43,672 nt of DNA from Macrostomum lignano (lineage: Eukaryota): the NCBI GenBank assembly GCA_002269645.1, contig NIVC01004508.1:1-43672 (forward strand), given 5' to 3'. The translations under genes and the position numbers were made by a program. Positions 3,463 through 30,117 of the stretch are shown here, piece after piece. The first letter of the stretch is position 1; each line of letters begins with the position of its first letter. The notes below the pieces were generated by a model. That model was not told the origin of the DNA. It was given only the letters and a program-made list of their open reading frames with translations, and did not search any database.

Positions 3463-3519
3463 ACAAAAGAGTTTAAACTGAGTCATGGTAATAGTAACAC
3501 TCAACAAAAAATTACTCTC

Positions 3520-3630: not shown

Positions 3631-3836
3631 TCAGGAAGAAGAAGACAGGCTCCGCGCGTCACAAGTAAAATGGGGTGCCCACCATCAATGAATAAGTTTT
3701 TAACAAATCGTCCAGAAAAATTCTGGACGTCCAGAAAAAAATGACTCAATGCAGTATATACACCATCTTGGGTTGAAAAATATTCTTTTGTGTGTTCTCG
3801 TATTCTTTTTTTCTGTTACTAAAAATAGAACAAAAA

Positions 3837-4235
3837 ATGACACACGTTACACATGTGCAAAATATAAATGAGTATCAGGTAGGAGATCCAATTGAATACC
3901 GAGGTGAGGGACTTTTTGATTTGGTTGGAACAGCAGCAAATTTTGTTAAAGACAATATGGGGCTTATAGGGCAAGCTGGCTCTGCAGCAGGCTCTATAAC
4001 AAATGCTGTAAAAGGAGGAATTGAAGCAGCTAGAGCGGCAGAAGAACTAAAGAAATTGAGAGATTTTAACGACACCCTCTCACAAATAAATGCAATAAAA
4101 GATTTAAAGCTGGCACAAGCCGCACAACCAACAGAAACCCCCACGAAAACCACGCCAATAAGTAATAAAGATATTCAGGATTTTAATAAAATGTTAAATA
4201 CTATTAAAGGTGGAAAAGGATTAAAGAAATTTTAA
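3837..4235 (+). CDS. Polinton putative virion core/membrane-active protein (132 aa from ATG 3837)
   Basis: Intact ORF with AAAAAATG start. G-x-G-L motifs (RGEGL, GGKGL) resembling maturation-protease sites flank an Ala/Gly-rich amphipathic segment. Confidence 0.65.
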   Translation: MTHVTHVQNINEYQVGDPIEYRGEGLFDLVGTAANFVKDNMGLIGQAGSAAGSITNAVKGGIEAARAAEELKKLRDFNDTLSQINAIKDLKLAQAAQPTETPTKTTPISNKDIQDFNKMLNTIKGGKGLKKF

Positions 4236-4245
4236 CAATATAAAA

Positions 4246-5285: not shown

Positions 5286-5317
5286 ATTCAAACATTATAT
5301 AAATTTTATTCTATAAA

Positions 5318-5509
5318 ATGGAAGCAATTTTAGCTCAAATCGACAACCCTGAACTTAGAGCACAATTAATAGCTCAAATCGATGCACAACGAATTGCCGA
5401 TAGGGCTGAAATAGAAGCAAGAATTAGGGCAGAAAATGAGATACGTTTAGAAAGACAATTAAATGATATTAATAACCCCAACCACAAGGACAAAATGGAG
5501 CTGAAGTAA
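5318..5509 (+). CDS. Small coiled-coil-like hypothetical protein (63 aa)
   Basis: Intact ORF with CTATAAAATG start; could be an N-terminal part of pPolB. Confidence 0.45.
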   Translation: MEAILAQIDNPELRAQLIAQIDAQRIADRAEIEARIRAENEIRLERQLNDINNPNHKDKMELK

Positions 5510-5559
5510 TATATATAGATATAGATATAAATACAAATTATAAAGAATATTTTAAACAA

Positions 5560-8500
5560 ATGAAAGATAAATTAAAGACTATATTAAACAATTATACTAT
5601 AAGGCCAAATAACAAACGACAGCCAATTAAGTATAAAATAGAAGTTGAAACAGAATTTAAAAAACCAAATATTCTTAATGCAAATTCAGAAATTGAAGTA
5701 ATAAATAACTTTTCACAAGAATCATATAAAACATTATTATCAATGGGAAATTACAACAATCAATTCGATCAAATAGAAGCTGAGTTTGATGAATGGATAG
5801 ATAAGATGACAGAAAACGGATCTGGGTTTATATTTGTATCTGTAATTCAGCAATAGTAAAGATTGCACCTATAGAAATTCTTAAAGGACGATCACATATG
5901 AAGCTCAAATTTAAATCACCTATGATTATAAATCCAGACAATAAAGATAATAAATGTTTATTATGGTGTTTATTAATTCATAAATATCACAATCAAGTAG
6001 AATCACACATTAATAAAATATATAATTATAGACAATATGAGGATGAAATAATAATGAAAAACATATCATACCCAGTAGCAATAGATGATATATATAAGAT
6101 TGAAAAAATGAATGGTTTAAATATTAATGTTTTACAATTGAAGAACCAAAAGATCTAGAAGAAATTCAGCAGGTCGATCCAGAATGGTATAAGAAAAGGT
6201 GTTATCTTGTTAAGCCAGCAACTGATATAACAGCACCAGATCAAATCGATCTTTTGTACATGCAGCGCGAAAATGAAACACATTATATATACATAAAAGA
6301 TATTAGTTCTTTTTTAAGAGAAAATAGAAATAGATATCCACTATGTAGAAATTGTTTTACATTTAAAAAGGATGAAACAGCTCTTAAAAACCACCAACGA
6401 TTTTGTTTAGATCACAAATTTACTAATGCTATAATGCCAGCATCTGAAGATGCAACCCTAAAGTTCCAACAACATTATATGGCAGTTAAAAAACCAATAG
6501 TAATATATGCTGATTTTGAAGCAACAAATGTTCCCTTAAAAGAATCACAGACGGTATCTGATGACGGTCATGCAAAGCATGCGACCCTACGGGACGGTGA
6601 ATGCACAAAAAAATTGGCACAACAGTTTCCGAATAGTTATTGTATATATGTACACTCCGTAGCTGATCATATATTTAAATCAAGGATGATTACTTACCAC
6701 GGTAATGATGCAGCTAAGCACATGGCAGAATCATTAGTAAATGTATTTGAATATATTCAAAATCAATATGATAAATTATCAAAAAATATTAATATGACAA
6801 ATAAGGATAGAGACAATTATAAAAATGCAACAAATTGTTTTATGTGCAAAAGATATTTAAGTAAGAAAATAAGATACGAGAACATTGTCATCTAACAGGA
6901 AATTATCGAGGGGCAGCATGTAGATCATGTAATGCAAAAGAAGGAAAAGGATGTAAGGAAATACCAGTATTTTTTCATAATGGTTCCGGATATGATTTTC
7001 ATTTCTTAGTTCGAGAATTGCTTCATTTAGGAAAGGATGAATATGAAATAAATATATTACCTAAAACATCAGAAAATTACATATCAATAACATATGGTAA
7101 GAAATACTCCCATCTAGTTTTTCTAGATTCCTTGAGATTCTTATCAACATCTTTAGCAAATGTTGTTTCATCATTAGTTCCAAAACCATGGGATTTAGAA
7201 ATAGTAAAGAAAAACTTTCCAATACTATTGAATCGTTTCAAAAAGGAAAAACTATCCGAGGAAGAACTAATGCTATTAACTCGTAAGGGCATCTACCATA
7301 TGAATATGTAACATCTGAAGACGTATTTTTTCATACCGAATTACCCCCAATTGAAAAGTTTTATTCAACATTATCACAAACAAACATAAGTGAATCGGAT
7401 TATGAACACGCTCAAAAAGTATGGAAATACTTTAATTGTAAAACATTTAAAGATTATCATAATCTATATCTTAAAGCAGATGTTCTCCTATTAGCTGATG
7501 CATTTGAAAACTTTAGGAATCATACATATGAGAATTTTAAAATTGATCCCGCATATTGTTTCAGTGCACCGGGATTAACATGGGCTTGTGGTTTGAAACA
7601 TACAGATGTTAAGATTGATTTACTAACTGATCATGATATGTTGTTAATGATTGAGAGAGGAATTCGCGGTGGATTCTCGGGTGTACTAGGAGATAGATAT
7701 ACTAAAGTAAATAATAAATATCTACCAAATTATAATAAAAAAGAAAAATCATCATATGTATTATATCTAGATGCAAACAATTTATACGGTGGTTGTATGA
7801 AACAAAAATTACCAATAGCTGATTTCCAATGGGAAGATGACCCCGATTATTACAAAAATATTCCCGAAGGAAGGGGCTGTATCGTAGAGTGGATTTGCAA
7901 TATACTCGGGAAGCAAAAGCAAAAACATATAAATATCCTTTAGCTCCAGAGCATTGTTCAGTTAATGAAGATGATTTATCACAAACACAAAAAGATTATC
8001 TTAAAGTAGATAATGCAAAACATCTAGCAACAAAAAAATTAATATTAAATTTACATGATAAGAAAAACTATGTAGTGCATTATAAGCTTCTACAATTTTA
8101 TGAAAAGCAGGGATTAAAAGTGTCTAAAGTACATCGAACAATATCGTTTATTGAGGAAGATTGGTTAGCTAAATATATTGACTTTAATTCAAATCAGAGA
8201 CAGATGTCAAAAACAAATTTTGAGAAAGATTATTGGAAATTAATGAATAATGCTTTTTATGGAAAAACGGTTGAAAATATTAGAGATAGAACCCAATTCC
8301 ATTTAGAAAAGGATATTGATAAAGCAAAGAAATATTTCTCAAAACCTAACTTTAAAGACTTTATAAAATTTGATGATAACTTTATGGGTATTCATATGAG
8401 AAATAAAACAACAAAATTTCTTAAACCAATATTTATTGGAATGGTTGTTTTAGATTATGCAAAGCTGGTAATGTATGAATATTATTATGATGTTATAAAT

Positions 8501-9293
8501 AAAACATGGCCAGATAACTATCCAATATATGCAGACACCGACAGTTTGGTATTTAAGGTTGAAACAGATGATCGGAGTCCGCGAACCAAAGGTTCGATGT
8601 CTATAAAGATATGGAAAAAATTAAGGATACATTGGACACTCCGACTATCCGGATAACCATCCTTTAAAATCAGATCAAAATAAAAAAGTTGTACTTAAAA
8701 TGAAAGATGAATTAAATAGCAAAATCATAACCGAGTTTATAGCAATAAGATCAAAATGCTATGCATTTAAGGTTTTAGGACAGGAGGGAGAGGTAAAAAA
8801 AATAAAAGGGGTATCAAGAGCAGCAGTAAAAAAGATAACATTTGATGATTATAAAAACGTACTTTTAGATTACCTTAATACAATTGAAAATTATCATGCT
8901 CCACAATATCGATTAAATTCAGATAAGCATCAGATGTTTGTCATCGAGACAGATAAAAAAACATTAAGTCCATTTGATGATAAAAGATATTTAGATGATA
9001 AAATTAAAACATATCCATATGGTTTAAAAGAAGAGATAAAAAATATGATAAAAGATAAAAAACAAAAAGAAGATATAATAAGTAAATATAATGAATACAA
9101 AGCGGCAATAAATAATTATTATTACGATTGTGATTGTGAATCCGAATGTGATTGTGAATATAATACATTTCTAGAATATGAAAAAGATATAGATAATTAT
9201 TATTCAACATTTCCAAAAGAACTTAAAAAATTAAATAAGGAAAAAGTCTTGAATAACTGGAAGAGATTAACAGAAAAATTACTTATCGGATAA
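5560..9293 (+). CDS. pPolB: Protein-primed family B DNA polymerase (about 7 frameshifts)
   Basis: ExoI IYADFE; ExoII FFHNGSGYDFH (6967-7000); ExoIII YLKADVLLLADAFENFR; PolA YLDANNLYG; PolB KLMNNAFYGK; PolC YADTDS; endonuclease-VII-like Zn insert CFMC...IREHCHLTGNYRGAACRSCN. Breaks near 5846, 6151, 6869, 7297, 7880, 8575-8595 and 8640. Confidence 0.97.
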
Positions 9294-9348
9294 AATCGCG
9301 TAAAAAACTAAAGCATGTAATTGTTTAAGCATAATATCCATTTCGATT

Positions 9349-9639
9349 TCATATATATTGAGCCAATTTCCTCGCAGTCGCAGGGTAACTTAAACAATCC
9401 TTTATTTTTTTCCTAAGTTTTTTTATTTTTCTAACCAATCTATCTATTTCAATTTCAATTACTATTTCAGCATAAACAATATCTTGTCTTAAAAAACGTT
9501 TTCTTTTATCTATCTCATATCGGATGGGAAACATATCGTCCCCATACTCATGATATTTCTGAGATATAATTATATTTATTTTTTTATTAATATCATTAAG
9601 TTCACGCTCTTTAGTGATAAGGATTTTTATCGTATCCAT
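9349..9639 (-). CDS. Hypothetical basic protein (96 aa)
   Basis: Intact ORF with AAGAAAATG start, packed between neighbours. Confidence 0.55.
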   Translation of the reverse strand: MDTIKILITKERELNDINKKINIIISQKYHEYGDDMFPIRYEIDKRKRFLRQDIVYAEIVIEIEIDRLVRKIKKLRKKIKDCLSYPATARKLAQYI

Positions 9640-9654
9640 TTTCTTATAAAAAAT

Positions 9655-9987
9655 TTAGTCTTCGTCGTCATCCTCCCAAACAGCCGCCAATTTTACAGTC
9701 CTATCACTCTTTTTATTATTTGTTTGTTTTAGTTTAAATTGCAATCCACCCTCGTTGCAGTATTTCATAACAAACGCTTTAGGTTTATTAATAACTAAAA
9801 CAGGAAAATTTTTAACATCATCTCCGCTTAGACATAAAATTTTTTGCCCATCTAATTGTAAAAATATTGATTGAAGCCCAATAAATTTAACCTGTCTCAA
9901 ACATATAATATTATATTCTTTATTCTCCAACATATTGGGTGTGAGATAATTAATCACATTAGAATCGGTTTTGAACCAGCTCTCCAT
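9655..9987 (-). CDS. Hypothetical protein with acidic C-terminal tail (110 aa); possibly SSB-like
   Basis: Intact ORF with TAAAAATG start; beta-rich body and WEDDDED tail. The SSB idea is inference only. Confidence 0.6.
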   Translation of the reverse strand: MESWFKTDSNVINYLTPNMLENKEYNIICLRQVKFIGLQSIFLQLDGQKILCLSGDDVKNFPVLVINKPKAFVMKYCNEGGLQFKLKQTNNKKSDRTVKLAAVWEDDDED

Positions 9988-10013
9988 TTTTAATCTAAAA
10001 AAATAACAAAAAA

Positions 10014-10526
10014 ATGAAAGACATTTATGTTTGTAATAAATGTAATGTGACTATGCACAGAGGGCAAACAGCAAACGGAGATATATATCATATGTGTTAT
10101 TCATGTTCTAAAATATATCAATTTGAAAAAACAAAAAAGATTGAAAACTCATATTACTATTTTAAAAACACAATTTTAAGAAATCTTACAAGAGACATTT
10201 CTGATCCAATTTTAATTCCCGGAAATAATGTTTATTTATATAATAACTTTTTCCATTTAAATAAAGGAAAGGGATTAAGTTCGAAAGACTCCGAAAGGAT
10301 TTTAATTTTAGTTGGATATTATTTCAATTTTCTTATTCGAGAGAATACAAAGTTTATAAGGATAGGTAACATACCTAACGAAATGTTATTGAAAAAGTCA
10401 TTGGAATTTTTATGTATTGATAAAAAATTTAAACCTAGGATCAGAAGAGAGTTACCACTTTGGGAAGAATATATAACATATGCATTAGAAAAACTAAACA
10501 ACCTGAAGTTCTACAGCACTTCCTGA
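10014..10526 (+). CDS. Hypothetical protein with N-terminal Zn ribbon (170 aa)
   Basis: CNKC...CYSC motif; AAAAAAATG start; intact. Confidence 0.7.
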   Translation: MKDIYVCNKCNVTMHRGQTANGDIYHMCYSCSKIYQFEKTKKIENSYYYFKNTILRNLTRDISDPILIPGNNVYLYNNFFHLNKGKGLSSKDSERILILVGYYFNFLIRENTKFIRIGNIPNEMLLKKSLEFLCIDKKFKPRIRRELPLWEEYITYALEKLNNLKFYSTS

Positions 10527-11148
10527 CCGCGGGCTTTGTGCCCCAGTAGCAATAGTTTCAGGTTCGTAAATGCCTAATGTTTCTATCGGTGGAGCTTTGG
10601 GTTTATCGAGTCTCAACTCTTTTAATTCCATATCGGTAAAAGTTTCAACATCTAAAATTCTATTTCTATCTTTTAAATATTTTTCATATAATTCAACCGC
10701 GGTTGATAATTCATGAATCGTTATCTCTCCGTCATCCAATATTTTTTGCACATATAAATATAATTGATTTTTATATTGTTGCAACATCTCTTAAAGATTT
10801 ATATTTTTCCTTTCTTTTTTTAAGATATAATTTAATTGCTAAAAGTATTGATAAGTTCCTGATCAATTCAAAACCTGATATTGAGCCAATTGAAATACCT
10901 AAAAATAATTGAGATAAATTAAGAGTTGGAATAGATTGTAAAATACCTAAAACGATTACACATAACATTGATAAGCTTCCAAATCCAATATTGAAAAAGT
11001 CCATATTTCTTATATGGTTTGAAACTCTTCTTACTTTTTTAGCATATAAATCATAATCATAGTTAATACGATCAACATTACTTAACATCTGACCTTTACG
11101 TTGGTTGAACCGGTCGCGTTCCCATTTATCTGCTTCAGATACCGACAT
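10494..11148 (-). CDS. Polinton two-TM membrane protein (one frameshift near 10780)
   Basis: ORFs 10771-11148 and 10494-10787 overlap and join. Two hydrophobic helices, then KKRKEKY and KILDDGEITIHEL, a pattern resembling conserved Polinton/adintovirus membrane proteins. Confidence 0.7.
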
Positions 11149-11160
11149 TCTCGTCTATTT

Positions 11161-11460
11161 TTAATAGCACCAAAATGAATTCCCCACGCTCTTTGGGATT
11201 TGCCCGGAGCTTAATAGGTATTGTATTGGAGTTATTCTTTCTTTTTTCTCCCATTTAAATCCTATTTTCCAAAACTCTTGAAGTATAATATGATTTTTTA
11301 ATAACTTAATTAATTCTTGAAGCTTCTTATTATCCTGAACATTTACAGTACTAAATAAAAATTTGGTATGAGATTTGAATGTTTTTATATTTGATTCTTG
11401 TTTAGGAATAGGAATAATAACATTATTTTGCCGCATCGATGGAGTTCTACTAAAAGCCAT
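11161..11460 (-). CDS. Hypothetical basic protein (99 aa, MAFSRTPS...)
   Basis: TATATAAAATG start at 11460 inside track ORF 11161-11607. Confidence 0.55.
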   Translation of the reverse strand: MAFSRTPSMRQNNVIIPIPKQESNIKTFKSHTKFLFSTVNVQDNKKLQELIKLLKNHIILQEFWKIGFKWEKKERITPIQYLLSSGQIPKSVGNSFWCY

Positions 11461-11499
11461 TTTATATAGAAATATTTTATATTTGAGTAGGAGGTTTTT

Positions 11500-13509
11500 C
11501 CAAATAAGCAGTAGAGGAAAAACATAACCAAACGATGTACTACCACAAACTGCGCCACGAATAAAATGTGCAGCATCCGATCCTCCAGTTCGAGCACCAA
11601 AACCCATAAGGTTCCACTTTATCTAAAGTTCCCCAAGTTCCACTATCATATGTGAAAACGTTCTGCCAATGAGGGTAAAGAATCACCAGCAACATTGTAT
11701 GTATGAATCTATACCAAACCCTTTGATTTAAAATATTAATTTCAAACAGATGCCAATCACCGTTATCAATATTTGCATAGGCTACAGTTTGATCCGCGTC
11801 AGTATTAACATCGCGCGGCTTGATCCGTCTGATTTTTTTGAACTCCAAAGTAGGCCAAATTTATCATGCCACTCACTAGCAAAAACTATCAATCCGGCGT
11901 CGGTTGATAATCCAGATCCAAATTCCGATGTTGGACGTTGGTGACAGTATGCATAAAACCAAACCGCATCTGCACCATCTCCTGTAGCATTAGCAACTCG
12001 GAAAAAGAAAGACGCAGATATATTTTGAAAATGTGTGAAATTGAATTGTAAAGCACCACTTACTCCAGAAGTTTCACGAGTAATTCTAGCGCCGTTTTGA
12101 TAATCGATATAAGAAGCGTCACCAATTAAAGAACCGACTGGATATATATCTCCGGCGGTTGTTGGATTTTGATATCCAGACCAATTGCAAATTACTGGTT
12201 CGAACAAGGCCGCATCAATAGCAGGTATTCCATCCAATTTATTTTTATCGCTTCCAGACATTCTACCATTTGATGTTGGAGTAGCTAGCTGATCTACGTA
12301 CGCTCGCGGAACTGCAGAAAGTATTTGAGTTGGCCAATTAAGATCTTGAATTTCAACACGGTGTTCAAATAATTGTATTTGACGAACCTCGATAGGTTGT
12401 GTACCGGTACCACCAGTTGGGAAGAATACGCTATAATATTTCCAAAAATTAGTCGTTAAATTAGATAGAGCAAATGATGTTGCTTGAACTGGTGATCCCG
12501 ACGTAGTTAATGTCGTCCATGAATCGGTAGCAACATTTTTTGCGCGAACCGACCACCCCGAGGGTATCTCAATTGTTTCACTGCCTGTAATTCTTAATTC
12601 AAATATTCTTCTATTATAACCTAAAAATTCAAATTGAATTTCCATATTGGTTGTGGTTCCGGTATTTGGTGACCATTGTGTCGCAAGGCTTCCATCTCCA
12701 ACTCGAAAAGCTGTGTTGCCATTTTCAGATGCTGTAAGAACAACATCAGGATTTGAAGTATTTGATGTAAGCGGCGTGGTAAAAATATCGGCGTCGGTTG
12801 CATTAGCTCGCTCGTTTACTTGGCCTAGAGTTATCGAGTCTGCGTTATCTGTTCCAAATAATAAATTTGTTAATTTAAAATTATTCATATTAATATTACC
12901 ACTACGAGTGGCAACTTGATTATCGACATAGTTCTTATCAACCACTGAATCACTAGTTGTAATTGAAACATTTATAATTCGGTTGTTGCTCATATCTAGG
13001 TTTCCGGTTGCGGTGGTTTGAACATAACGTGAATCAGAATCAGTTCGAGAATAAGAATCAGTTACATCTCTTTTTAAATTTAATCCATTATCAACTTCGG
13101 TTTTGGTATAAGAATCGGCTACGTTCCGTTTCAAATTTAATGAATTATCAACTTCGGTTTTGGTATAAGAATCGTTATATCTTTTTAAATTTAATGAATT
13201 ATCAACCTCTGTTTTGGTATAAGAATCGGCTGTATTGCGTTTTAAATTTAATGAATTATCAACTTCGGTTTTGGTATAGGAATCGGCTACGTTCCGTTTC
13301 AGATTTAGTGAATCATCTATTTGAGTTTTGGTATAGGAATCTGCAACATTTCTTTTTAAATTTAATTTATTATCAATTTCAGTTTTTTTATAACCTTCAT
13401 CCTCATTAATATATCGATTATCTCCAAATGTAACACTTATTCCACCAGATGTGCCACCACCACCACTACTTGTTGTTCCGTTCCATGAGGGTGTTCCAGA
13501 AAATAACAT
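11500..13509 (-). CDS. Fibre/receptor-binding protein: 19-aa shaft repeats, discoidin (F5/8C)-like domain and L-type lectin-like head; 3' part frameshifted
   Basis: About six YTKTEVDNSLNLKRNVADS repeats; VVDKNYVD and VPRAYVD tail-fibre-like motifs; WSP...IQFEF...WTTL...YYSVFF...IQLFE discoidin-like pattern; GDGADAVWFY and FGARTGGSDAAHFIR lectin-like motifs spread over ORFs 11782-13509, 11540-11848 and 11161-11607. 3' end is approximate. Confidence 0.75.
13035..13392 (-). repeat. 57-bp coding tandem repeat in the fibre shaft (~6 units, one of 54 bp)
   Basis: TCAACTTCGGTTTTGGTATAAGAATC... recurs with ~57-bp period. Confidence 0.9.
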
Positions 13510-13519
13510 TTTTTACTGT

Positions 13520-13960
13520 CTATTTTATAGAGTCTAAAATCGCCCTAAAGTCTTCGGGGTTTACACGAGCTTCATTCGAAAGTCGATATAAAAAATACAA
13601 CGCCGCTTGCCCGCAATAACTTTTATCAAAGGTTTGAAATTGTTCGTGATGATCTCCACATAAACGATTTTTAGTATGATTAAATTTGTCTTTTATTTCC
13701 TGTAACGGAGGAAGCGCGTATGAATCAAAAAAATAAACAAGTTTAGGTTTGGAATAAACTGCCGACCAATGAACACCATTTTCTTTTGTTGTTTCAATAT
13801 TAACAATGAAAGATCCATATTGTGGTAAGTCTTTGATCTCATCTCGCATAACACATCTGAATGGTTTTATTTTTAACTGCCTCGCCCAATTTGTTAATTC
13901 GATATTGCTTGTTGTGTCCGTTCCATATCTTTGTTTAAAATCATCCCACGTCATGGTCAT
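13520..13960 (-). CDS. Adenain-like cysteine (maturation) protease
   Basis: Catalytic pattern GVHWSAV (H), YFFDSY (D), QFQ...SYCGQ (Q/C); intact 146 aa. Confidence 0.93.
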   Translation of the reverse strand: MTMTWDDFKQRYGTDTTSNIELTNWARQLKIKPFRCVMRDEIKDLPQYGSFIVNIETTKENGVHWSAVYSKPKLVYFFDSYALPPLQEIKDKFNHTKNRLCGDHHEQFQTFDKSYCGQAALYFLYRLSNEARVNPEDFRAILDSIK

Positions 13961-13961
13961 T

Positions 13962-14144
13962 TTATGTTCCTGAAAAACTCTTGGTTTTAGTTAGTTTCGT
14001 AGGTGTGGGTTTTAACAATTCCTTTCTTATTTTATCAGCTTGTAACTGCCTTAATTTTGCTAGTTCTAGTTCGTAATTATCTTCAGCTTTTTTAACTTTT
14101 TCTGATTGTTTTTTTATTAAATTATTATTATTATTATTACCCAT
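13962..14144 (-). CDS. Small basic protein (60 aa), MG N-terminus
   Basis: Intact ORF with GTAAAAATG start, tightly packed between penton and protease. Confidence 0.55.
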   Translation of the reverse strand: MGNNNNNNLIKKQSEKVKKAEDNYELELAKLRQLQADKIRKELLKPTPTKLTKTKSFSGT

Positions 14145-14157
14145 TTTTACTATAGGA

Positions 14158-14940
14158 TTAAACCTGTTTTATACGTAAAATTATTGTTATTGACTGCCCA
14201 CCAAAACTTATTAATCTATCGCTTTCATCTACAATCCTAATATAAATTGATTGAACATATATTGATTTAATGGGTAATATATTGGGGTTTGGGTGCAACA
14301 ATCATTTTCTCTCCAATTGGAACAGCAAGAAATGGGATTGAATAAATAATTCCACGTTGAACCAAAACTCCATTATTATCTGTTATATAACCGCCGTTTG
14401 ATATGTCGGTTGTTATATTAATTGTATTACTCCGCCCTCAATGTTTCCCACTGTATCACCGGTGCTTGATGTGGTAACTATTCGGGAATTAAATCCAAGT
14501 ATGGTTCTGAGTGAATTTGCAATTGTGAAATCAACCTGATATCCGGATCCTAGTGATAGTGTGAATCTGCCAGACGGTAAATCAACACCTATAACAATTG
14601 CTCCTGCTACCCAATCACCATTAGTTGTTAATTCTCCTTCTATATAAGCATTCAAATCAGTATAGCTATACGCTCCTGGGTTAACGCTAAATGTTGTCCA
14701 ATTGGCTCCGGAATCTTTAGAATATCTAAATTGATTATTTGTTGCATTAATTAATTGAGGCATGTTGAAAACCGAAAATAGAATTAAACCTATTTGATAA
14801 CTTAGGCTTTGATCAAGTTGTAATGGATCGCGCAATTGAATCCGTTGCTCGCTGGTTGTCATTATAAACTGTAATGTTGTACTAAATTTTGAATTAGTTC
14901 GATCTACCAATTGTTTTATAGTATCTAAATTTGTAGTCAT
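14158..14940 (-). CDS. Minor capsid protein (penton, single jelly roll); frameshifted after ~14420
   Basis: LRDPLQLD...IGLILFSVFN...INATNNQFRY...PGAYSYTDLN...SLRTILGF. The shifted tail reads NITTDISNGGY...IIYSIPF...IYIRIVDESDRLISFGGQSITIILRIK and stops at 14158-14160. Confidence 0.88.
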
Positions 14941-14991
14941 TTTTATAGTGGGGAAATCGAACCTTTGGTTCGCGGACTCCGTCCGATCGTG

Positions 14992-15786
14992 CTATGTCTC
15001 TTCTTCCTCATTATCTTCTTTTATCAAATTTGTTAAAATTCTATGTTTCCTTTCTAACCTCGGATTGATATAAATATGTTTGTATTGGCTATCATCCCAA
15101 ATTTTTTTACACATACTTTTAAATGGTTTTGCATCCAATCCGGGATTAAATCTAGCGTGAATATTTTGTAAATCATAATTATCTAAATCAAACATTACAC
15201 AACAGCTAGCATTCTTTTTTATAATCGATTCTAATTCTCTAAAGGATTGAGTAAGATAAAAAGCTCCAATTCCATCTCCTCTACCACTAACAAAAATTTC
15301 CTTTTGCAATTCTTGATCACCGTCATTAATACAATCATCAAAAATAATTAGTGTTTTATCATGTTTTGGAATTTGATCATAGGCTAATCGGGTTGATACT
15401 CTAACAGTTGGGGCGCGATCGGACGAAGTCCGCGACCCTTCGGGGCGATCGGTGATGTTTTCTGGCTGTTGTGCCATTGTTTTACATAAATCCTCAATGT
15501 CTGCTAGATTAAATCGCGGTTCGTCATCATCCTCATATTGCTCATATGCTCTTAACATTCTAAACAAGACATCTTTTTTTAATTTGTTTTTTAATCCATG
15601 TTTAAGAAATTCATAATATTTTATTCTAGGTTTATTAGTATAAATTATTAAATTATTATAGTCTAACATTCCATCTGTTGTTAATAAATCGTAAACAAAG
15701 TGTGTTTTTCCTTTACCTGATCCTCCGATTACTAAACAAAGAAAAGGATCATTTGGAAATATTTTATTGTGTTTTGCCTTTACCAT
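14992..15786 (-). CDS. A32/FtsK-like DNA packaging ATPase
   Basis: Walker A GGSGKGKT, Walker B LIIFDD, motif YLTQSF; intact 264 aa. Confidence 0.95.
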   Translation of the reverse strand: MVKAKHNKIFPNDPFLCLVIGGSGKGKTHFVYDLLTTDGMLDYNNLIIYTNKPRIKYYEFLKHGLKNKLKKDVLFRMLRAYEQYEDDDEPRFNLADIEDLCKTMAQQPENITDRPEGSRTSSDRAPTVRVSTRLAYDQIPKHDKTLIIFDDCINDGDQELQKEIFVSGRGDGIGAFYLTQSFRELESIIKKNASCCVMFDLDNYDLQNIHARFNPGLDAKPFKSMCKKIWDDSQYKHIYINPRLERKHRILTNLIKEDNEEEET

Positions 15787-15896
15787 TTTTAAAGAAATAA
15801 TTTAAATAGGCGCGACGGTCGGAGACCTGCACTCATTTTACAATGGCGCGTCCCGAACAATCGTGCCATCAGCTTTAGCAATTGACATATATTCCT

Positions 15897-17310
15897 CTAG
15901 AAACAATACGTGGCGTCAAGTGCCTGATTACCGGTTTTATTAATCTCTAACATATAATTAAGTCCAATATTGGCTACGTTTTCTTTCTGTGCCGTTAGAT
16001 CATAAACAACCACTGGATGAATGTTTAGAAACTCTGTGGGTGTGTACTGAGGGACGGCATACGCTTCATTTTTAGCATAATCTTGATAATATTTTATAAA
16101 ATCATTAACATTATTATTTGCTATATTTAAATTTAGGGGGTCTTTAACCGGATAATATTGATCATCAACCTGCAGGCGGATATTCTGAACATTAAACTCG
16201 TTAATAGCTGCAGCCGCATTGTCTGTTGCGGTGGCTGCTTGTTCTGCTATGGCACCGGATTGAAGCCAATATAAATCCCCATTTGCTCTTTTACTCCTTC
16301 TATTTGTTATCTTAAACCAAACAAAAATATATCTCACCCGACGTTTTGATGTCAGTATTTGCCACTGGAATGAATCCTGGTTATTATTAATGGTTCGCAT
16401 AAAATGTCGACGATTCAAATAAAATATTTCCTGATCATGCGTTAACTGATTATCGATGTGTTTTAAAAGTGGGGCTGTTACCTCAATAGTTGGTACGACT
16501 AATTGAATTGAATCTATACGAACTGCTATATCGGTTGAAATTGAGGTTCCATAAAGTATCCTAGGCTGATATCCACCAGATATTTGCAACTGTATCCCAA
16601 ATTTTAATCCTTTCCATACCCGATTTGGTGAAAAGAACCCAAATAGTGGAAAGATTGAAAAGTCTTTGCTCATATGCTGTTGCTGTGGTTAAAACCGCTA
16701 CTGGGAATTTATTCTGACGAGCTATAAAACCTGTATTAATATCTTTTGTATTAGTCATGGTGGTTACAACTGGAACTATGTTTGTATTAAGGTAAACAAT
16801 TAGCGCTGCAGTATCTGCACCGGCTGCGTTTTGTACATTAGGGAAAACTACTGCTTGTCCATTACCCCTTATCAGGCATCCACCCAACATTATCACCAAC
16901 TTGTTTTGATAAATAAGTATAATTTAAATGTTTCAAAACTCCATTAATCTCTGCGGGGTTTGATGATGTCTCAACCTCAGCACCATTAACAGTTAGTTGA
17001 GCTTGGGAAAAACATTTATAAAACCAATCATTTTCTATTATTATTCCGGATCGATCTGCGATATCTCCGGCTGCAAGAGCAGTTCCATCATTTCTAGTAT
17101 ACAACCATCTAACGCGGAAAAACGCATTTTTCATATCCAATATAGTGTTGGTTGCGCCGATGTCAAAAGTTACCGTTCCAGTAGTAAAGTTATTTGAATT
17201 ATCACTTGTTGGTAGGGTATAATTTAAATCTTTGCTCTGACCTCATTAATATACTGTCGGTGCTTTTTGAAATGAAATTTATCACTCCACATAGTTTTTG
17301 TTTCAGCCAT
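15897..17310 (-). CDS. Major capsid protein (double jelly roll), ~470 aa, 3 frameshifts
   Basis: ATG 17310 (TTAAAAAAATG). Fragments LDMKNAFFRV...CFSQAQLTVNGAEVE, IDSIQLVVPTI, RVRYIFVWFK, VQNIRLQVDDQYYP and VVVYDLTAQ follow the Polinton MCP pattern. ORFs 16862-17140, 16561-16899 and 15897-16673 overlap in series. Confidence 0.9.
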
Positions 17311-17344
17311 TTTTTTAAGTTAAAAAAGTTTTTTATGTTAAAAA

Positions 17345-18010
17345 ATGAGTCAATTTATGGACGTTGATGGAGAGTTAGCGATTTATAAAGAGAAGCAAAG
17401 ATATTCTGATTTTGTTAGAAATTTACAAAAAAGAAAGTTAGGAATACAATTAGCGGGTGAAAGATTTGCTGCTCCTTTTGTTAATCCTATTACTGGGAAA
17501 ATTAGTGAACTAGAAAAAACAGATAAAGATCTTCTGGAAAAAATTGCTACGAATACTGAGCCAAAAGAGGATGAAATTTTGGATGAGCCGCCTGCTTATG
17601 ATGTTGATCAAGCACAATTGAGAATTGCAGAGATTAGACGTGCAGAGCGGGGCGATCGGGAACAATATCCAAGAGTACCAGCTAGTATTGCTGCGACAGA
17701 TTTAGGTAATAATAATTATCGAATTGGTGGAGTTGATAAAAATCGAAATGAACTATATAGAGAATTGGGTGGAGCATATAATATTGTTATGAACCCTAGG
17801 GTAAAATTTAACCCTGATTTATATACTAGGGATGAATTAATAAGTGCTAGAATTTTTTATGATGAGTTAGGAGGAGCTGTTAAAAATACCAGCTTGTATA
17901 AAAGGATTGTTAATTCTATAAATAACAAACTAGCTGTTGGTGATGGATTTAAAACACCACGAAAACTTGTTTTAGCTGCTGCGAAAGCTGCTGGACATAC
18001 TGGTGTTTAA
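17345..18010 (+). CDS. Polinton hypothetical protein (221 aa)
   Basis: Intact ORF with TAAAAAATG start, divergent from MCP; C-terminal VGDGF G-x-G motif. Confidence 0.75.
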   Translation: MSQFMDVDGELAIYKEKQRYSDFVRNLQKRKLGIQLAGERFAAPFVNPITGKISELEKTDKDLLEKIATNTEPKEDEILDEPPAYDVDQAQLRIAEIRRAERGDREQYPRVPASIAATDLGNNNYRIGGVDKNRNELYRELGGAYNIVMNPRVKFNPDLYTRDELISARIFYDELGGAVKNTSLYKRIVNSINNKLAVGDGFKTPRKLVLAAAKAAGHTGV

Positions 18011-18037
18011 TTAATTGTTAAATTTATTTTTTATAAA

Positions 18038-18640
18038 ATGGAAACTAATAAGATTTGTACTAAGTGTAAACAAGAAAAACCGATGACAAAAGAATTTTAT
18101 TTTTGGAGAAATGATTCAAAAAAATTTAGAAATGATTGTCGATCTTGTCATAATACCTCATCTGCTATTTGGATAAAAAACAATAAAGATAAATGGAATG
18201 AATATAGAAAAAATAAGTATCACACTGATGATAATTACAAACATATTGTTTTAATTAGAAATAGAATAAATTGGGCGTTGAAAAATTTTAATGACAAGGA
18301 CTATATCTCATATCTTGGTTGCACAAAAGAATTCTTTTTTGATTGGTTAAATTTCACAAGAAATTATTATGTATCAAAAGATTATACTGGAAAGTTAGAT
18401 ATTGATCATTTCATTCCCGCTTCTTCGTTTAGTTACAAAGATGAAGATCAGATGAAAAAGTCTGAAAATTGGAGAAATAAAAGATACTTAACTAGCGTAG
18501 ATAATAACTATAAAAAAGTTAAACAACCAACCATTGAAGAGTTTGCAAAACAATTGGTGCTATCATGTATTTTTAAGGCTATTAAAAATGAGCAACCGAA
18601 CGAAGTTCGCGTTCCTTCGGAACGATCAAATAGTGTTTGA
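18038..18640 (+). CDS. Free-standing HNH/endonuclease VII-like (beta-beta-alpha-Me) endonuclease (200 aa)
   Basis: N-terminal CTKC...CRSC Zn finger; YLGC...FFDWL; DIDHFIP...NWRN...DNNYKK, resembling HNH-type endonucleases of large DNA viruses and phages. Confidence 0.8.
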   Translation: METNKICTKCKQEKPMTKEFYFWRNDSKKFRNDCRSCHNTSSAIWIKNNKDKWNEYRKNKYHTDDNYKHIVLIRNRINWALKNFNDKDYISYLGCTKEFFFDWLNFTRNYYVSKDYTGKLDIDHFIPASSFSYKDEDQMKKSENWRNKRYLTSVDNNYKKVKQPTIEEFAKQLVLSCIFKAIKNEQPNEVRVPSERSNSV

Positions 18641-20224
18641 AGGAGGATTGTTAGATGTTCAAAAAGGATTAACAAGCTTACCACCAATCTTTACTACTGG
18701 AAGGTATACAAATGAATTACACATCCCATCTTACAACTTCGCGGGTGGAGCTCGAGCTGTGCCCGAGTGGTAGATGCAAAGCTACTGCTAGTCACTATTA
18801 GTGGCAACACCAGCCGCTCACTCAATCCCCTAAAGCTTCAAGTACCACTTTGTTTTCGAAAGATTACAAAGGAACAGAGGTAACTCCTCTTCCCAACGGT
18901 AACAAGCTTGAAGATAAATATATGGGCAAGAGTGAATCGAAAACCTAACCTCATATGACTTGAGTATGGTTGAGATGCAACGACTGTACGCTGGTGGGCT
19001 TGAAGGACTTAGTCAATCCTTATGATAGCTTAAGACACAGTCTACTCCTTTGTGAAAGCAAAGGTATAAAGGCCGGGTTGACTCGACTCGATCTCCGATT
19101 AAATCCTGATAATACTCCAAAAGCCGATTCAATTCCCATTAACGGTATTGATTGGTTAGCATACTATCATGACTTAGCATACAGAGATGCTGATAAGAAC
19201 TCACCCGAGGAAGCATTAAGATTAAAACATGAAGCCGATCAAAAAATGATTCAAGGATTAGATAACTTGCAGGGATTATCAGTAGGTCAGAGATTAACTA
19301 GGTGGATGGTTAAAAAGATTTTGCAGTCTAAAGTTAAATTTGGTTTGGGAATTAATTATAATCAACATGGAAATAATTGTGTTGAGTGTTTGTTGTTAAG
19401 TGGCGGTGGGTTAAGTTCTGATGAGGCAAAGATTCTTCATAAAGAATATCGAAAACCTAAATTTTATAGAAAAATCATGAACTTCAAAAAGAACGAAATT
19501 TGGTATGCTGATTTAATGTCTATGCCGATCGATAAAGGATATAAATATATTTTAACCATATTAGATGGTTTTACTCGATACGCGTGGGCTGTTCCTTTGA
19601 AATCCAAAAAAGGAGAGGATGTTGCTGCTGCTTTTAGAAGTCTTGGAGAAAAAAGCGAAAGATTGTGTGTTGACGAAGGAAAAGAATTTTACAATCCTCA
19701 TATGTATAAATTATATCATTTTGAAAAAGGACAAGAAAGGAAAAAGGACGCGAATGGGGAGTATATTAATAAAATTTATTCTATTTATGGAGAGAGTAAA
19801 AACGCATTAATAGAAAGATTTAATCGAACTTTAGGTAAGAAATTGTGGTTTCAGTTTAGTCTTAATGGAAACCAAAAATGGGTAAAAATATTACCAGACG
19901 TTGTAAAAGATTATAACAATTCATATCATTCGGCCATAAAGATGGCTCCTCAACAAGCTTATAACAATCCTGAAAACGTTAGGGTTACTTTTGGAGATTT
20001 TGAAAAAAAAGAAAACTAAAGGTTTTAAGGTTGGTGATTCTGTTTATATCTATAAATGGAAAGATAAGTTTGAAAAGGGAAGAAAAGGATATTGGAAAAT
20101 AAGTGAGAAATTTACCATCAGTAAAGTTTTAAATACAAACCCTACAACCTATATAATTGCTGATAAGGATGGTGAAGAAATATTGGGTTCTTTTTATGAG
20201 AACCAGATAATGTCTGCGAACTAA
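18588..20224 (+). CDS. PLA2-integrase fusion (exon 1 18588-18746, exon 2 19081-20224; one indel in the A-run near 20005); ~430 aa after splicing
   Basis: TAAAAATG start. LHIPSYNFAG|TRLDLRL...INGIDWLAYYHDLAY...EADQKM is a parvovirus VP1u-type PLA2. IWYADL...ILDGFTRYAWAVPLK...VDEGKEF...IERFNRTL is an rve DDE core. C-terminal FKVGDSV...GSFYENQI. Confidence 0.93.
18747..19080 (+). ncRNA. Group I self-splicing intron (IC-type with P5abc), 334 nt, no internal ORF
   Basis: P1 exon CGGGU/IGS GCCCG with U.G; perfect 7-bp P3; 6-bp P4; P5abc with A-rich bulge and GAAA L5b; P6 with 11-nt receptor-like motif; P7 GACUG/CAGUC with bulged C; J8/7 UAAGACA; P9 GAAA hairpin; terminal G. Removal restores the PLA2-integrase frame. 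Confidence 0.93.
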
Positions 20225-20234
20225 GTTCAAACAG

Positions 20235-20459
20235 TTACTTAAGACAACATGGTAGTAAATTTTTTATAACAAACAAAAACAATATTATTACTATAATTGT
20301 TACTAATATTATTATTGACATTTGTTCAACTGTTATCAAACTTAAATTTTCATTAAGTTCATTAATCGGCACATTTCCGATGTAGGAATAGTTTACCTTC
20401 ATTTTTTTATATATATTTTTCACAATAAATGTCGTTTCTGTTATAGAATAATAGTTCAT
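20235..20459 (-). CDS. Small single-TM protein (74 aa), C-terminal LLPCCLK
   Basis: Intact ORF with TAAAAAATG start; hydrophobic IIILVTIIVIILFLFVI segment. Confidence 0.6.
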   Translation of the reverse strand: MNYYSITETTFIVKNIYKKMKVNYSYIGNVPINELNENLSLITVEQMSIIILVTIIVIILFLFVIKNLLPCCLK

Positions 20460-20475
20460 TTTTTAAATATTTTTT

Positions 20476-20790
20476 TCACATAAAAATTTCACTTTCATTC
20501 TCTGAATCACTGGTTTCATATGAACTATTTGTTGATTCGGAATCTGTTGATCTAACCTCCCAATCATCCGAATTTAAATAATCTCCAAGTTGAAATATTA
20601 ACTCACCCTCTTGTTCTAAATCATACATCTCATCTAGCTCTAATGGATAAAGCTTTAGGTCATGCTTGTCGTCATATTTTAAATAAACTTCATCAATTAT
20701 TCCATTCAAAATATGTTGTTTTATTATCTCTGCATTTTTAGCAACAGTCTCAAAAGTATCACTAACAGAAAAGGTGTAAACTCGGGTCAT
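20476..20790 (-). CDS. Acidic hypothetical protein (104 aa), first gene inside the right TIR
   Basis: Intact ORF with CTAAAAATG start 18 bp from the TIR. Confidence 0.65.
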   Translation of the reverse strand: MTRVYTFSVSDTFETVAKNAEIIKQHILNGIIDEVYLKYDDKHDLKLYPLELDEMYDLEQEGELIFQLGDYLNSDDWEVRSTDSESTNSSYETSDSENESEIFM

Positions 20791-20807
20791 TTTTAGTAAC
20801 AGAAAAA

Positions 20808-21114
20808 GACCCTTCGCGCCTGCGGCGCGGGCAAGGGGTTATAGAGTAGTAGTATAGAAAAAGACGCTTCTAGATCAGACCTTATTTTAATGACCGTTTG
20901 TAAGGTCTTAAGAGGGGGGACGCGAGGGGAGTGTTGGGGAGTGTTTGGAAGTGTTGGGAATGATTTTTATTGTCAGGGGTGATTATGGGTGATTAGATGT
21001 GTTAAGGGTGTTTAGATGTGTTTTTTTATTTACCCCCCGTGTCCCCCCTCTAGACCCTTAAAACGGTCATTAAAAAAGTGCTCTGGGTCTAGAAGCGTCT
21101 TTTTCTATACTACT
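20808..21114 (-). repeat. Right terminal inverted repeat (307 bp)
   Basis: Ends ...GAAGCGTCTTTTTCTATACTACT at 21114; matches the left TIR. Confidence 0.97.
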
Positions 21115-21502: not shown

Positions 21503-22000
21503 CAGTGGCAAAACGGAATGGTAGCAGATGGAGTGAGTAAAGATGCTGACTGATTGTTAGCTTGTTTGGTTGTTTGTTTGTTGCTTCTGTATTGTTAGTA
21601 TTAGCTATTGTCATTATTGTTATTAAAATGAGCTACTGAGTCGGAAAGAAGAAGCTATAAGCCGTTTTTTACCTACATGCTGCTGTCTACCGAGCATTCT
21701 GCTGTTATTGGCGTCGACATGGCCTTGCCTTTGGACAGTTCATTTTCTTCGTTTCCAATTCAAAAGTAAAAGAGCAAGTAACAGCTGGCTGGCTGGCTTG
21801 ATATTGAAGGGGGTGGGGACTGAAGTACACCTAATAAATAAGAATAAAAGCCTTGACTGGAATGCACTGTGTTTATTGTCTATGGCACGCACTCTACGAA
21901 GATTTTAAATGCTATTTAAGAAAGTTTTCTTTTTATCCTCTCTCTAAAACGAATGCGGAAGACGCGAATTGACTATTTATAGATTTCTAACTACTATATA

Positions 22001-22707
22001 TACCTTTTTACGTTCTATTTGATAAAAACTGCAACCAATTTGGCCACGGCTCAGCCTGACGCAGCCGCAGCAATTTTCCATAGACAGCCACCGCTAGCGG
22101 CAACCAATTTGTTAAAAACTGCGAGCTATTTTGCCAGCTTGAAGATAGCAGCTCAATAGCATAACAATAACGATAAAGAATGTTAACAATACATGCACGA
22201 AGTCAGAACATTATGTCCTCAGCATTCAAGCACCGATTGAAGTACGTCTGGGAATGGTTGATCCAGCGCAGGCACTTGAGAGGCGTGATGCAGTTCAGTG
22301 CTTGCTGCACTTCTCTCTTCAGAATGCGCATTCTGTGCTGATGCAGTGTCGCACCTGCTGCAGCAGCCAGTCCAGTATCTGCCAACTCTACCAGTTCGTT
22401 CATACGTGGTCACGATGTTCCTCACTGTCGGTTTCTTCATCCCCATCATTCTGCCAAGCTCTCTCCAGTCGTCGCCACTCCTGTACGCTCTCACGATTCG
22501 CTCTCGATCCAGCTGACTTATCTTTTGGTACGGCCCACGATTCGCCATCAGAGCAGCTGCTATCTTCAAGCTGGCAAAATAGCTCGCAGTTTTTACCAAA
22601 TTGGTTGCCGCTAGCGGTGGCTGTCTATGGAAAATTCTATGTCTATGGTCAGGCTGAGCCGTGGCCAAATTGGTTGCAGTTTTTATCAAATAGAACGTAA
22701 AAAGGTA
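22001..22707 (-). mobile_element. Internally deleted (non-autonomous) Tc1/mariner-superfamily DNA transposon
   Basis: TA duplications at 21999-22000 and 22708-22709; ~153-bp TIRs (TACCTTTTTACGTTCTATTTG...). N-terminal HTH MANRGPYQKISQLDRERIVRAY...KPTVRNIV is joined out of frame to a transposase-like C-terminal helix (ITPLKCLRWINHSQTYFNRCLNAEDI); DDE core absent. Confidence 0.9.
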
Positions 22708-22880
22708 TACTAGCATGCATATAAAAATGGATACATATATATGTTATTAATTGTGCATTAATCAACAGCAGCAGAAATAGAAGGATAAATCATTAGATCC
22801 ATCAACTGTATAATAACTAGCGAATAACAGATAATTATTATATATGAACTTTTACAACTGTTAATTAAACGTGCTCATTA

Positions 22881-27800: not shown

Positions 27801-30080
27801 CTGAAAATCCCGCGTGCTACCGACTGTGCACGGTGAGATCCGAGCAGGGCGCTTCGGGCAAAGAAATTGGCGTGCCTGTTACTGAGCAGGAGGACGGCTT
27901 GAGTCGGATTGTGCTCAACAACCCCGGTCGCTGGCTGCCTGGACAGCAGGTAATAATGTGGGCTTTGTTGAAAGTGTAATTCTTTATGAACTCAAAACTG
28001 CGCAGTTTATTGCAGTCATTGTAGTAGTATGGTTGGGGTCCCAACTCCCACCCTGCATTTCCACCGCAGTTCAGAGCTTAATTTATGAAATAACCTTTTT
28101 TTCCAAACCATATATTTTAGCTTTAAGTAAAACCCTTCACAAATTAGCCTAATTAAGTTTTCTACATCTCTAAATTACCTGTCTTGGCGTACATTTAACT
28201 ACAGCGTTTAATCACAGTACATTCGAAGTATAAACGGACTTCTGCCTTGACTACTCACCACCAGGTGGTTGTGGAGCTCCTGGACGAGGTGCAGCCCAAC
28301 GGTGCATCCAAGGGCCGCGTCCTCGGCTACTACAAGCGCCAGTTGCGCTACAGCTTCCTCGGCCACCAGCAGCTGCAGAAACTCCTGGCTGAGCAGCCGG
28401 ACCGCTTCAAGATTTGCACCCTCGAGCTGAACGGCGTCCAAGGGGGCTCGGCGGTTCCGGTCGACCCCAGCGACCCGATCGCCCGCATCGAGATCAACGG
28501 GCGCGAGAACTGCGGCAGGGCCTGCGCCAACGACCAGGTGGTGGTGGAGATCATGGAGATCAAAGGCGCTGACCCGGCTAATAAAGAGGTCAAAGGACGC
28601 GTTGTTGGCATGCATCAGCAGGTGCGAATTTGTTAAGCTCTTTGTCGACTTATTTCTAAACTCTTAGGGCATCGATTGGTTACAGAAAATGGGTTTGGGT
28701 CGGGCATGCGGTCCTGAAAGTCAGTACTGTGAGAACTGTGACTGTACTGTCACAGCATAACATGCGCAACCTTGGGAATCACTCGGCCAACACACACATG
28801 TAAGTCGCTATGGGCTGAGAGCAGTCACGTGACTACTATTCCGTCCAATAGCGACTTGAATCGGGTGAATCCCTAGGTTGATGATAGGCCGGGTGAATCC
28901 CTAGGTTGCGCCCAAGCATGTGTCACAGTACTGTCAGAACTGTGACTTGAGTCTAAACAACTATCATTTAAAAAATTTCCAACGTAAAAATGAATCACAA
29001 AATGCTCAGTGCTTTATGAAAAGACAACTAATTTACAGTATTACAGAGCCTTCTCAATCACTTCTAACAGGCGGAGAAGCTGCGCTACCAGCTGTTTCTC
29101 TGCGAAGTGCTCAGCAGCGTTGGCGCACTGATGCGACCGTTGTGCGGCACCTTCCCGAAGATTAACTACGACAATTCGATTGCTCAGCATGCTTTGAAGA
29201 ATGAACCAAACGATTTGCTCGATGGACACCAAGAGCGCAGCAGCACAGGGCAGCAACAGGTGACTCAGAAACAAAATCATGCGCGAAACATTGACCGCGA
29301 CTTTGTGTCGGTCTTCTTACCGAAAAGGTGTGAGCTAATTTTTAATTACATTATATTGCTACTTTTGTTTAATAATTTCAGCAACGACGTTGAATGCATT
29401 TAAACAATTTTCAAATCTTACTAGGGATTCGACTGGTAAAATCTACTTTGAGCACGATCGCTATCAGCGAGTAAACAAAGAATTCTGCGAGCAGACTTTT
29501 CTGGTGTGCTTCGAGTATTGGCGTCTGGACAAGAACTACCCCATGGGAAAGGTGGTCTACGTGCTCGAAAGCACCGACGGCTCGCTGGCAGAGGCGTTCG
29601 GTCTCATCCAAATGCGACACCGGCTGCCTCGTCCGCTGCGAGATTCAAAGAAGCTGCGCAATCAGGTGGCTAACGTGCAGCAAAAGGACAACAGCATGGG
29701 TCTAAGGGACCGGCTCGACATGCGTAAGGTGCTCACCGTTACCATTGACAACCCGGACACGCGGGACATGGACGACGCAATCAGCTACGAGCGTTGCTAC
29801 TCAACAGGCGTAGAAACCGTCGGTGTTCACATCACCGACATCTGCGAGTTCATCGGCATCAAAGGCTCCCCGCTGGACCGTGTGGCTCGGGGTCGCCTCC
29901 GAACCATCTACCCGCCTAAGGTGGGCAAGTCGCAGCAGCAGGTGACACCCAACCACATGCTGCCGAAAACTCTGGCTGAAGACGTGCTCAGCCTCTGCGA
30001 AGGATCCGACAGGTTCTGTCTGAGTGTGCTCTTTAAGTTCAAGCGTGACGGAAAACACGTAAAAGTAAGATATCGCGCGC

Positions 30081-30117
<37 letters not shown>

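Follow-up and report, generated by a model that had tools for sequence, protein, structure and literature searches.

The Macrostomum lignano contig NIVC01004508.1, analysed here over its full 43,672 nucleotides (nt; the window), carries an endogenous Polinton in which a gene fusing a phospholipase A2 domain (PLA2X) to an integrase is interrupted by a group I intron. Comparison of the gene copies makes it likely, as far as sequences can tell, that a mobile group I intron family, kin to the introns of giant viruses, colonised the calcium loop of the PLA2X-integrase gene in this Polinton family. The insertion point, G|P-G-T, lies in the most conserved motif of the gene. The intron structure, a single site shared by three intron types, intron-less alleles, a fused open frame and nuclease genes beside and inside the intron were all observed.

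Ninety loci round the PLA2 gene, picked for variety and not at random, were fetched, and 88 of them contained the gene. The intron of the window (type A) was found in 25 loci (24 places), type B in 52, two of which are misregistered through small indels, and type C in 2; eight loci were intron-less and one was rearranged. Genome-wide pattern counts gave 24 for type A and 112 for type B, with 0 for the control, and a 12-nt pattern for type B was discarded because its control count was too high. The element family itself comprises at least 150 scored PLA2 matches among 501 candidates. The genome gave 86 matches to Wnt genes and is that of an animal. All three types share the insertion site in the calcium loop, and the intron-less copies, which read F-A/T-G-P-G-T, place types B and C at G|P. 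Precise removal of the intron gives back the intron-less gene for types B and C, not for type A. In locus L057, the 5' end of an intron is followed by a rearrangement and then by an intron-less gene.

The types B and C matched the Rfam family RF00028 with 62.3 and 78.3 bits, above the gathering score of 50. The type A intron of the window matched over the whole model length (E 1.3e-9, 42.8 bits) and folded better than 100 of 100 shuffled sequences (z −3.6). Its features are as follows.

18747 to 19080, forward strand: group I intron, type A, 334 nt, with the 3' end at 19080 or 19072.
18747 to 18765, forward strand: internal guide; 18761-18765 pairs with exon positions 18742-18746 (helix P1, with a U.G pair) and 18747-18760 can pair with exon 2 in two registers (P10).
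18771 to 18773, forward strand: TAG stop ending the unspliced frame, inside the 5' strand of P2 (18767-18773).
18808 to 19042, forward strand: catalytic core; P3 18808-18814/18990-18996, P4 18818-18823/18930-18935 and P7 18982-18986/19038-19042 with the guanosine-binding G-C pair.
19047 to 19064, forward strand: P9 with a GAAA loop, from the covariance-model match and the drawn fold.
19072 to 19080, forward strand: unusual 3' end, with G19072, exon-derived Pro-Gly codons at 19073-19078 and 2 nt ending in G19080.

The P3-P7 pseudoknot with its G-C guanosine site and the P4-P6 domain can all be drawn in the window intron. Across the loci, P1 with a U.G pair at the 5' splice site was fully paired in 23 of the 24 parsed type A loci, and P7 was fully paired in 75/75 parsed loci with three different sequences (2 more loci were not parsed). 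Compensatory changes distinguish the types in P1, P3, P4 and P7, and in types B and C the exon and guide strands of P1 co-vary. Peripheral modules, namely two versions of P2 and two of P5b, are common to different types; the introns therefore recombine. A later 5' splice site within the guide was ruled out by inspection, there being no U.G helix with a possible loop, and a profile built from the three types found no further intron in the window. In one type A copy (L024), an 833-nt insertion lies within P8.

A preliminary description of this DNA had placed the gene start at 18588 and a stop at TAG 18771-18773 inside P2, with an insert of 334 nt. Translation and the fold confirmed all three: from the ATG at 18588, in TAAAAATG, the unspliced frame runs for 61 codons to this stop. 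A stop closes the unspliced frame in all 77 intron-bearing loci examined. The insert length (1 mod 3), which the same description had pointed out, proved incidental and was rejected as a gating feature, as type A introns measure 330-334 nt with all three remainders modulo 3 and it is the stop that blocks read-through.

The gene that the intron interrupts is composed of the following parts.

18588 to 18746, forward strand: exon 1, 53 codons, stopping within the first half of the calcium loop of PLA2, with a 33-nt hairpin insertion missing from most copies.
19081 to 19350, forward strand: PLA2X body, with HD at 19168-19173, Asp at 19237-19239, the first in-frame AUG at 19246 and KxKxGxG at its end.
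19342 to 19413, forward strand: linker GLG..H..CxxC..LSGGG, without Met, with a protease-type site.
19414 to 20019, forward strand: rve integrase core (DDE), whose frame is cut short by a frameshift within an A-run near 20003-20010.
20018 to 20224, forward strand: C-terminal 68 codons of the integrase, out of frame in the window copy.

The frame, previously proposed to continue from 18588 to 20224, is indeed open from 19081 over HD..D, the linker with GLG/GGG and the rve core; it ends at 20019, with the final 68 codons in a different frame. In most other copies about 380 codons are open, and the break in the window integrase is either real or an assembly error. An intron-less copy passed the Pfam cut-off for PF08398 (PLA2), and the HD..D catalytic residues are present in the window gene. 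PLA2 and integrase stand in one frame in both subfamilies and in 8/8 intron-less copies, and 23 of 175 homologous proteins also contain an integrase stretch. In metagenome loci, PLA2X and integrase are often separate neighbouring open reading frames (ORFs). The linker carries (M/I/L)xGxG or (M/I/L)xGGx in 80 of 83 loci, in five spellings, as well as in the two closest outside homologues; in all, 4 of 14 outside fusions match this pattern, which we take to be of the adenovirus-protease type. A second linker feature, H..NNCxxC (19351-19389), is kept in both subfamilies and in two outside homologues and is a possible zinc site.

Since the intron interrupts a conserved fusion and the linker holds no Met, the full polyprotein of intron-bearing copies needs splicing. 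The earlier proposal that the fusion depends on splicing therefore stands in this part, while a working PLA2 is doubtful for type A. Its further suggestion that a protease of the element cleaves the polyprotein is reasonable: besides the linker motif, the candidate enzyme encoded at 13520-13960 resembles Peptidase_C5.

The domain, the HD..D dyad and a C-terminal pX-like GxG are shared with the PLA2X of adintoviruses and Polintons (PMC8502044) and with parvovirus VP1u PLA2 (PF08398), whereas here the domain is fused to an integrase and interrupted in its calcium loop. PLA2X with a pX-like tail is described by Starrett 2021 (PMC8502044), in whose accessible text and one supplement no mention of a PLA2X-integrase fusion or of an intron was found. 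The viral contigs searched held no PLA2 relative. None of 80 metagenome loci had an intron at the PLA2X site (58 parsed as intact; 22, judged by eye, are frameshifted, truncated or variant). Four database proteins (P0022, P0024, P0079, P0094) have their called start directly before P-G-T, a hint that the same interruption may occur in elements of other samples.

We then consider the 3' end of type A. A ligation of 18746 to 19081 leaves Pro-Gly out of the G-P-G-T loop, so that the YxGxG calcium loop, present in intron-less, type B and type C copies, is absent from the one-step product. The claim that this junction rebuilds a PLA2 with YxGxG was thus not borne out, the length of the loop being constant in 164/164 homologues that span it, 106 of which read GPGT. 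Parvoviral calcium-loop variants are attenuated, according to the accessible part of PMC12455919. Nor does the sequence set the 3' splice site at 19080, as had been assumed: G19071, G19077 and G19080 keep the frame, G19072 does not, and no single G restores the intron-less junction. A genome search for a DNA copy with exact removal of type A gave 0 matches. No copy with the intron after Pro-Gly was found either; the 27 matches to the exon-2 motif are 24 type A places, 1 type B and 2 unrelated.

G19072 lies 8 nt past P9 and is homologous to the last base of types B and C, and type C is then followed by the same six exon bases as 19073-19078 in 8 of 16 readable copies; for these reasons we regard 19073-19078 as exon-derived. 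The last 8 nt of the intron (19073-19080) are identical in 24/24 type A copies, and 19074-19078 repeat the P1 target of the 5' splice site. The guide pairs with exon 2 from 19073 with −9.8 kcal/mol and from 19081 with −10.8 kcal/mol, and 19073-19092 form a P1+P10 duplex with 2 nt looped of −19.9 kcal/mol, compared to −8.4 kcal/mol for the 5' exon alone. However, exon 2 contains a 5-nt repeat and the guide is near-palindromic, which weakens the argument from pairing; in a chance control, 37 of 3000 local 12-mers paired as well.

A single step to G19080, which has its own P9.0 (ACU with 19076-19078) and P10, stands at about an even chance in our estimate. It would yield an in-frame protein with an intact integrase and a calcium loop two residues short, in which PLA2 activity is probably lost. 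It is rather unlikely that type A gives no useful product, and splicing to another G is improbable.

Two further readings of this end were weighed. In the first, which we hold to be doubtful, one ribozyme acts in two rounds: the intron leaves at G19072, the ligated RNA offers a second P1 target (19074-19078) with 2 nt behind it, the second of them G, and these (19079-19080) are cut out by the freed intron, by which the normal loop would result. The position of G19072, the six exon bases beside type C, both guide registers, the identical 8 nt and the fixed loop length are in favour. Nevertheless, co-conversion by itself would make the 8 nt invariant, the exon repeat and the near-palindromic guide could account for both registers, and one step to G19080 needs no second round. 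We know of no natural case of two-round splicing. Intron-derived ribozymes excise single nucleotides in vitro via their own 3' G, as the accessible part of PMC2532722 reports. The window intron shares with this engineered trans-excision-splicing the P1, the looped segment ending in G, the P10 and, under this reading, the ribozyme 3' G as nucleophile; the reaction is described there for designed ribozymes only, whereas here it is the geometry, in the form of pairing, that is seen. The combined proposition, that type A is a natural two-round ribozyme and that the majority of its sister introns splice without a terminal G, is speculative. Should type A depend on a second excision, this would be to our knowledge the first natural trans-excision-splicing, and the removal of a 2-nt micro-intron would be required for a normal viral protein in an animal nucleus.

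In the second reading, type A copies are passengers that splice to G19072, with an immediate stop, or hardly splice, and are mobilised by the protein of intron-less, type B or type C copies. The homologous, out-of-frame position of G19072, the minority of type A (24 versus 112) and the several broken genes of the window copy are compatible with this. On the other hand, the core helices, with their many compensatory changes, are unbroken, the guide has acquired a pairing with exon 2 that starts at 19081, and downstream frames are open in 18/25 type A loci, close to the 44/51 of type B. We consider it unlikely.

The evidence for mobility comes from nuclease genes and from the uniformity of the introns. 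Type C carries in its P2.1 loop an ORF that matches Pfam RE_Eco47II, a PD-(D/E)xK nuclease, and extends into the ribozyme core. The ORF lies inside the intron at the same site in L056 (693-1379) and in 18/20 further top matches (L246-L265), and at least 13 type C copies have an open nuclease frame of 237-250 codons. In addition, the gene upstream of PLA2 is an exchangeable cassette, encoding either a PD-(D/E)xK nuclease (e.g. L028:2266-2769) or, in the window, an HNH-like protein:

18038 to 18640, forward strand: free-standing zinc-finger/HNH (endonuclease VII-like) gene, PHROG 1035 with E 2e-7, overlapping the PLA2 start.

The free-standing PD-(D/E)xK nuclease is 61% identical to the one encoded in type C introns. 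Its gene was found in 22 intron-bearing loci and the HNH-like gene in 53. Every subfamily-1 locus with exon 1 has one of the two upstream, and both go with types A and B. The PD-(D/E)xK cassette adjoins 0/8 intron-less copies, a small sample. Among type A copies (n=23), the mean identity is 97.5% for the intron, 95.0% downstream and 91.3% for exon 1. The first 29 nt of exon 2 are near-invariant in type A, as co-conversion would give, and variable from the first codon in type B. Taken together, the three types, the intron-less copies, the adjoining and intron-encoded nucleases and the fact that the introns vary less than their flanks indicate a selfish homing intron.

Collaborative homing, in which a free-standing endonuclease serves an ORF-less intron, is described in phages together with a two-stage model (PMC3984707, accessible part). 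The likeness consists of a nuclease gene beside the host gene of the intron and, in sister copies, an intron that contains a homologue; the differences are that here both stages occur in one animal genome and that the nuclease is an Eco47II-like PD-(D/E)xK enzyme with a presumed target.

According to the favoured explanation, the introns would spread between element copies by homing, type C with its own PD-(D/E)xK nuclease and types A and B via the free-standing upstream nuclease and gene conversion. They would self-splice from the element's messenger RNA, and the ligated messenger would encode one PLA2X-integrase precursor that may be cut in the linker by the element's protease, the integrase being then packaged as a core protein. 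The dependence on splicing would be the cost of carrying a parasite, with no designed switch.

Several observations weigh against this explanation. The window intron scores below the RF00028 gathering score; at gathering level Rfam gave no match to it, the scan of 18 kb gave none, and neither did a scan of four type B/A loci together. Most copies of type B (to which L026-L030, L031 and L040, for example, belong) lack a terminal G, which should slow the second splicing step: the last base was A in 75 and G in 25 of the first 100 matches listed, with a normal guanosine-binding pair, compared to a terminal G in 16/16 readable type C copies. The HNH-like gene also adjoins 3/3 intron-less subfamily-1 copies, and the uniformity of the introns could equally come from structural constraint or from common descent of the copies. 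A short-loop PLA2 has no precedent among the 164 homologues, which is awkward for splicing of type A in one step. Lastly, no splicing was observed. Four contig sets, presumed to be RNA and aligned to 17300-20300, listed no joint of 18746 to 19073 or 19081, and such contigs may be DNA and drop rare variants; what they contained were unspliced junctions of types A and B and, in run X5, a single intron-less joint, letter-identical to the genomic intron-less copy L034. The contig sets are thus no evidence either way.

We give a low probability to an integrase that is produced without splicing: translation would begin at AUG 19246 (or 19306), owing to an internal promoter or to reinitiation, and the protease would trim the N-terminal extension of the protein. 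The preliminary description had named an internal Met, for instance in the linker, as the alternative to its proposal; the linker holds none, while the conserved AUG 19246 in PLA2X is still a candidate. This AUG, which both subfamilies possess, has an AAAAATG context as have other starts in the element, and PLA2X and integrase form separate ORFs in many other elements. Against this, Met 19246 belongs to the PLA2 helix motif, which explains its conservation, and 11 other AUGs lie between 18591 and 19245.

It was also proposed that splicing is an evolved switch gating entry and integration. The stop in the unspliced frame, the linker without Met and the intron in most subfamily-1 copies would fit a switch, and terminal-A variants could tune its rate, as in the coral intron without terminal G that is inefficient in vivo (PMC6545197, accessible part). 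However, intron-less copies with open frames coexist, the 80 metagenome loci have no intron at the site, and the three unlike types are interchangeable. The association with nucleases, the signs of co-conversion and the uniform introns favour a homing parasite instead, and no sensor-like domain was found in the intron by the Rfam scans. A switch is in our opinion distinctly unlikely. That the insert is a decayed insertion or an assembly artefact, to which the low Rfam score and the silent 18-kb scan would correspond, is hardly credible and already largely refuted by 24 near-identical copies, the presence of type A in four independent read sets, a full core with covariation and sister types above the threshold.

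Among 155 public loci, the outside introns nearest to the present ones lie in a VLTF3-like gene (L108, nhmmer E 3e-15) and in a giant-virus contig. A giant-virus contig (L096) contains two group I cores in tandem, and short IMG/VR contigs (L095, L103, L104, L114, L135, L136) show the same P7 pair within another kind of RNA, which is GC-rich and precedes an ORF. Group I introns of 309-376 bp are reported in polinton-like viruses of a cryptophyte, a rhizarian and a chlorophyte (PMC12220804, accessible part). The introns described here share the core of the RF00028 introns of nucleocytoviruses and protist polinton-like viruses, and differ from them by the animal host, the PLA2X-integrase gene, the competition of three types for one site, the A at the end of most type B introns and the duplication of the splice target at the 3' end of type A.

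Nuclear group I introns are described only in ribosomal RNA genes of microbial eukaryotes in the available text of PMC3679873, and as missing from metazoans other than basal lineages and five sharks in that of PMC10964413. As with nuclear ribosomal DNA introns, a self-splicing type of intron resides in a nuclear chromosome, some copies with an endonuclease gene in a peripheral loop; unlike them, it interrupts a protein-coding gene of an integrated virus. For the missing terminal G, the precedent is the hexacoral ND5-717 intron, which still ligates its exons, inefficiently (PMC6545197, in the part available). Both are natural introns without omega-G, exon ligation being known for ND5-717 and predicted here, and ND5-717 is mitochondrial, fixed and host-assisted, whereas A and G endings are here polymorphic among copies of one genome. 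In the accessible part of a nematode Polinton preprint, a group I intron is brought up solely as a potential origin of an HNH domain, and PMC11296320 mentions such introns only when discussing homing. A literature search, with most subscription papers outside its reach, found no report of introns in animal Polintons. The parts are thus known already; their occurrence in an animal nuclear protein-coding gene, with three competing types and both nuclease stages, appears to be new.

More than 150 copies of three group I intron types are thus present in a protein-coding gene of animal chromosomes, where an endogenous virus brought them. This one genome makes testable the folding and splicing of group I ribozymes in animal RNA polymerase II transcripts, the passage of a nuclease from free-standing to intron-encoded, of which both stages are present, and the weight of the terminal G, since natural variants ending in A or G coexist. 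How Polintons package their integrase is also suggested by the conserved fusion of PLA2X and integrase with its protease-type site.

The host element (window 3158-21114) is AT-rich, 18 kb long and bounded by terminal inverted repeats with AGT-repeat ends. Its further features are listed below.

3158 to 3462, no strand: left terminal inverted repeat, beginning AGTAGT.
20808 to 21114, no strand: right terminal inverted repeat, with ACTACT at its end and without a visible 6-bp target duplication.
13520 to 13960, reverse strand: adenain-like cysteine protease, Atlas score 0.96-0.97 to Peptidase_C5 clusters, putative linker-cutting enzyme.
14992 to 15786, reverse strand: A32-type packaging ATPase, PF04665 above cut-off.

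AGT-repeat ends and a 6-bp target-site duplication are hallmarks of Polinton/Maverick elements; the two flanks of the window copy differ, and no such duplication surrounds it. The gene set is that of a Polinton/Maverick (alpha adintovirus-like), with rve integrase, packaging ATPase, adenain-like protease and PLA2X. The protease had no Pfam or PDB match, and the polymerase and capsid fragments matched no profile. The latter are presumably PolB and capsid, from their motifs and position, the fragments at 5560-9293 carrying PolB motifs by eye. The putative polymerase region (5560-9293) is split over at least five ORFs and the putative capsid region (15897-17134, 14413-14940) over three. With several genes broken, the window copy is, by its sequence, either decayed or carrying assembly indels.

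Related hairpin-forming insertions of 30-35 nt are variably present in exon 1 (18594-18626), at 14956-14992 and 15413-15449, and in intron loops (P5 of L026, L027 and L065); they are possibly a tiny mobile repeat. A stretch of 90 nt with GT..AG ends (17374-17463, inside the ORF 17345-18010) is present in all 26 genomic loci compared and skipped by a single low-depth contig of run X5. It may be a spliceosomal intron, and hence a sign of sense transcription. In the host DNA, a 710-bp element at 21999-22709 contains nested inverted repeats, and a gene encoding RNB and AAA_11 helicase domains, which we take to be HELZ2-like, extends from 29543 to 37419.

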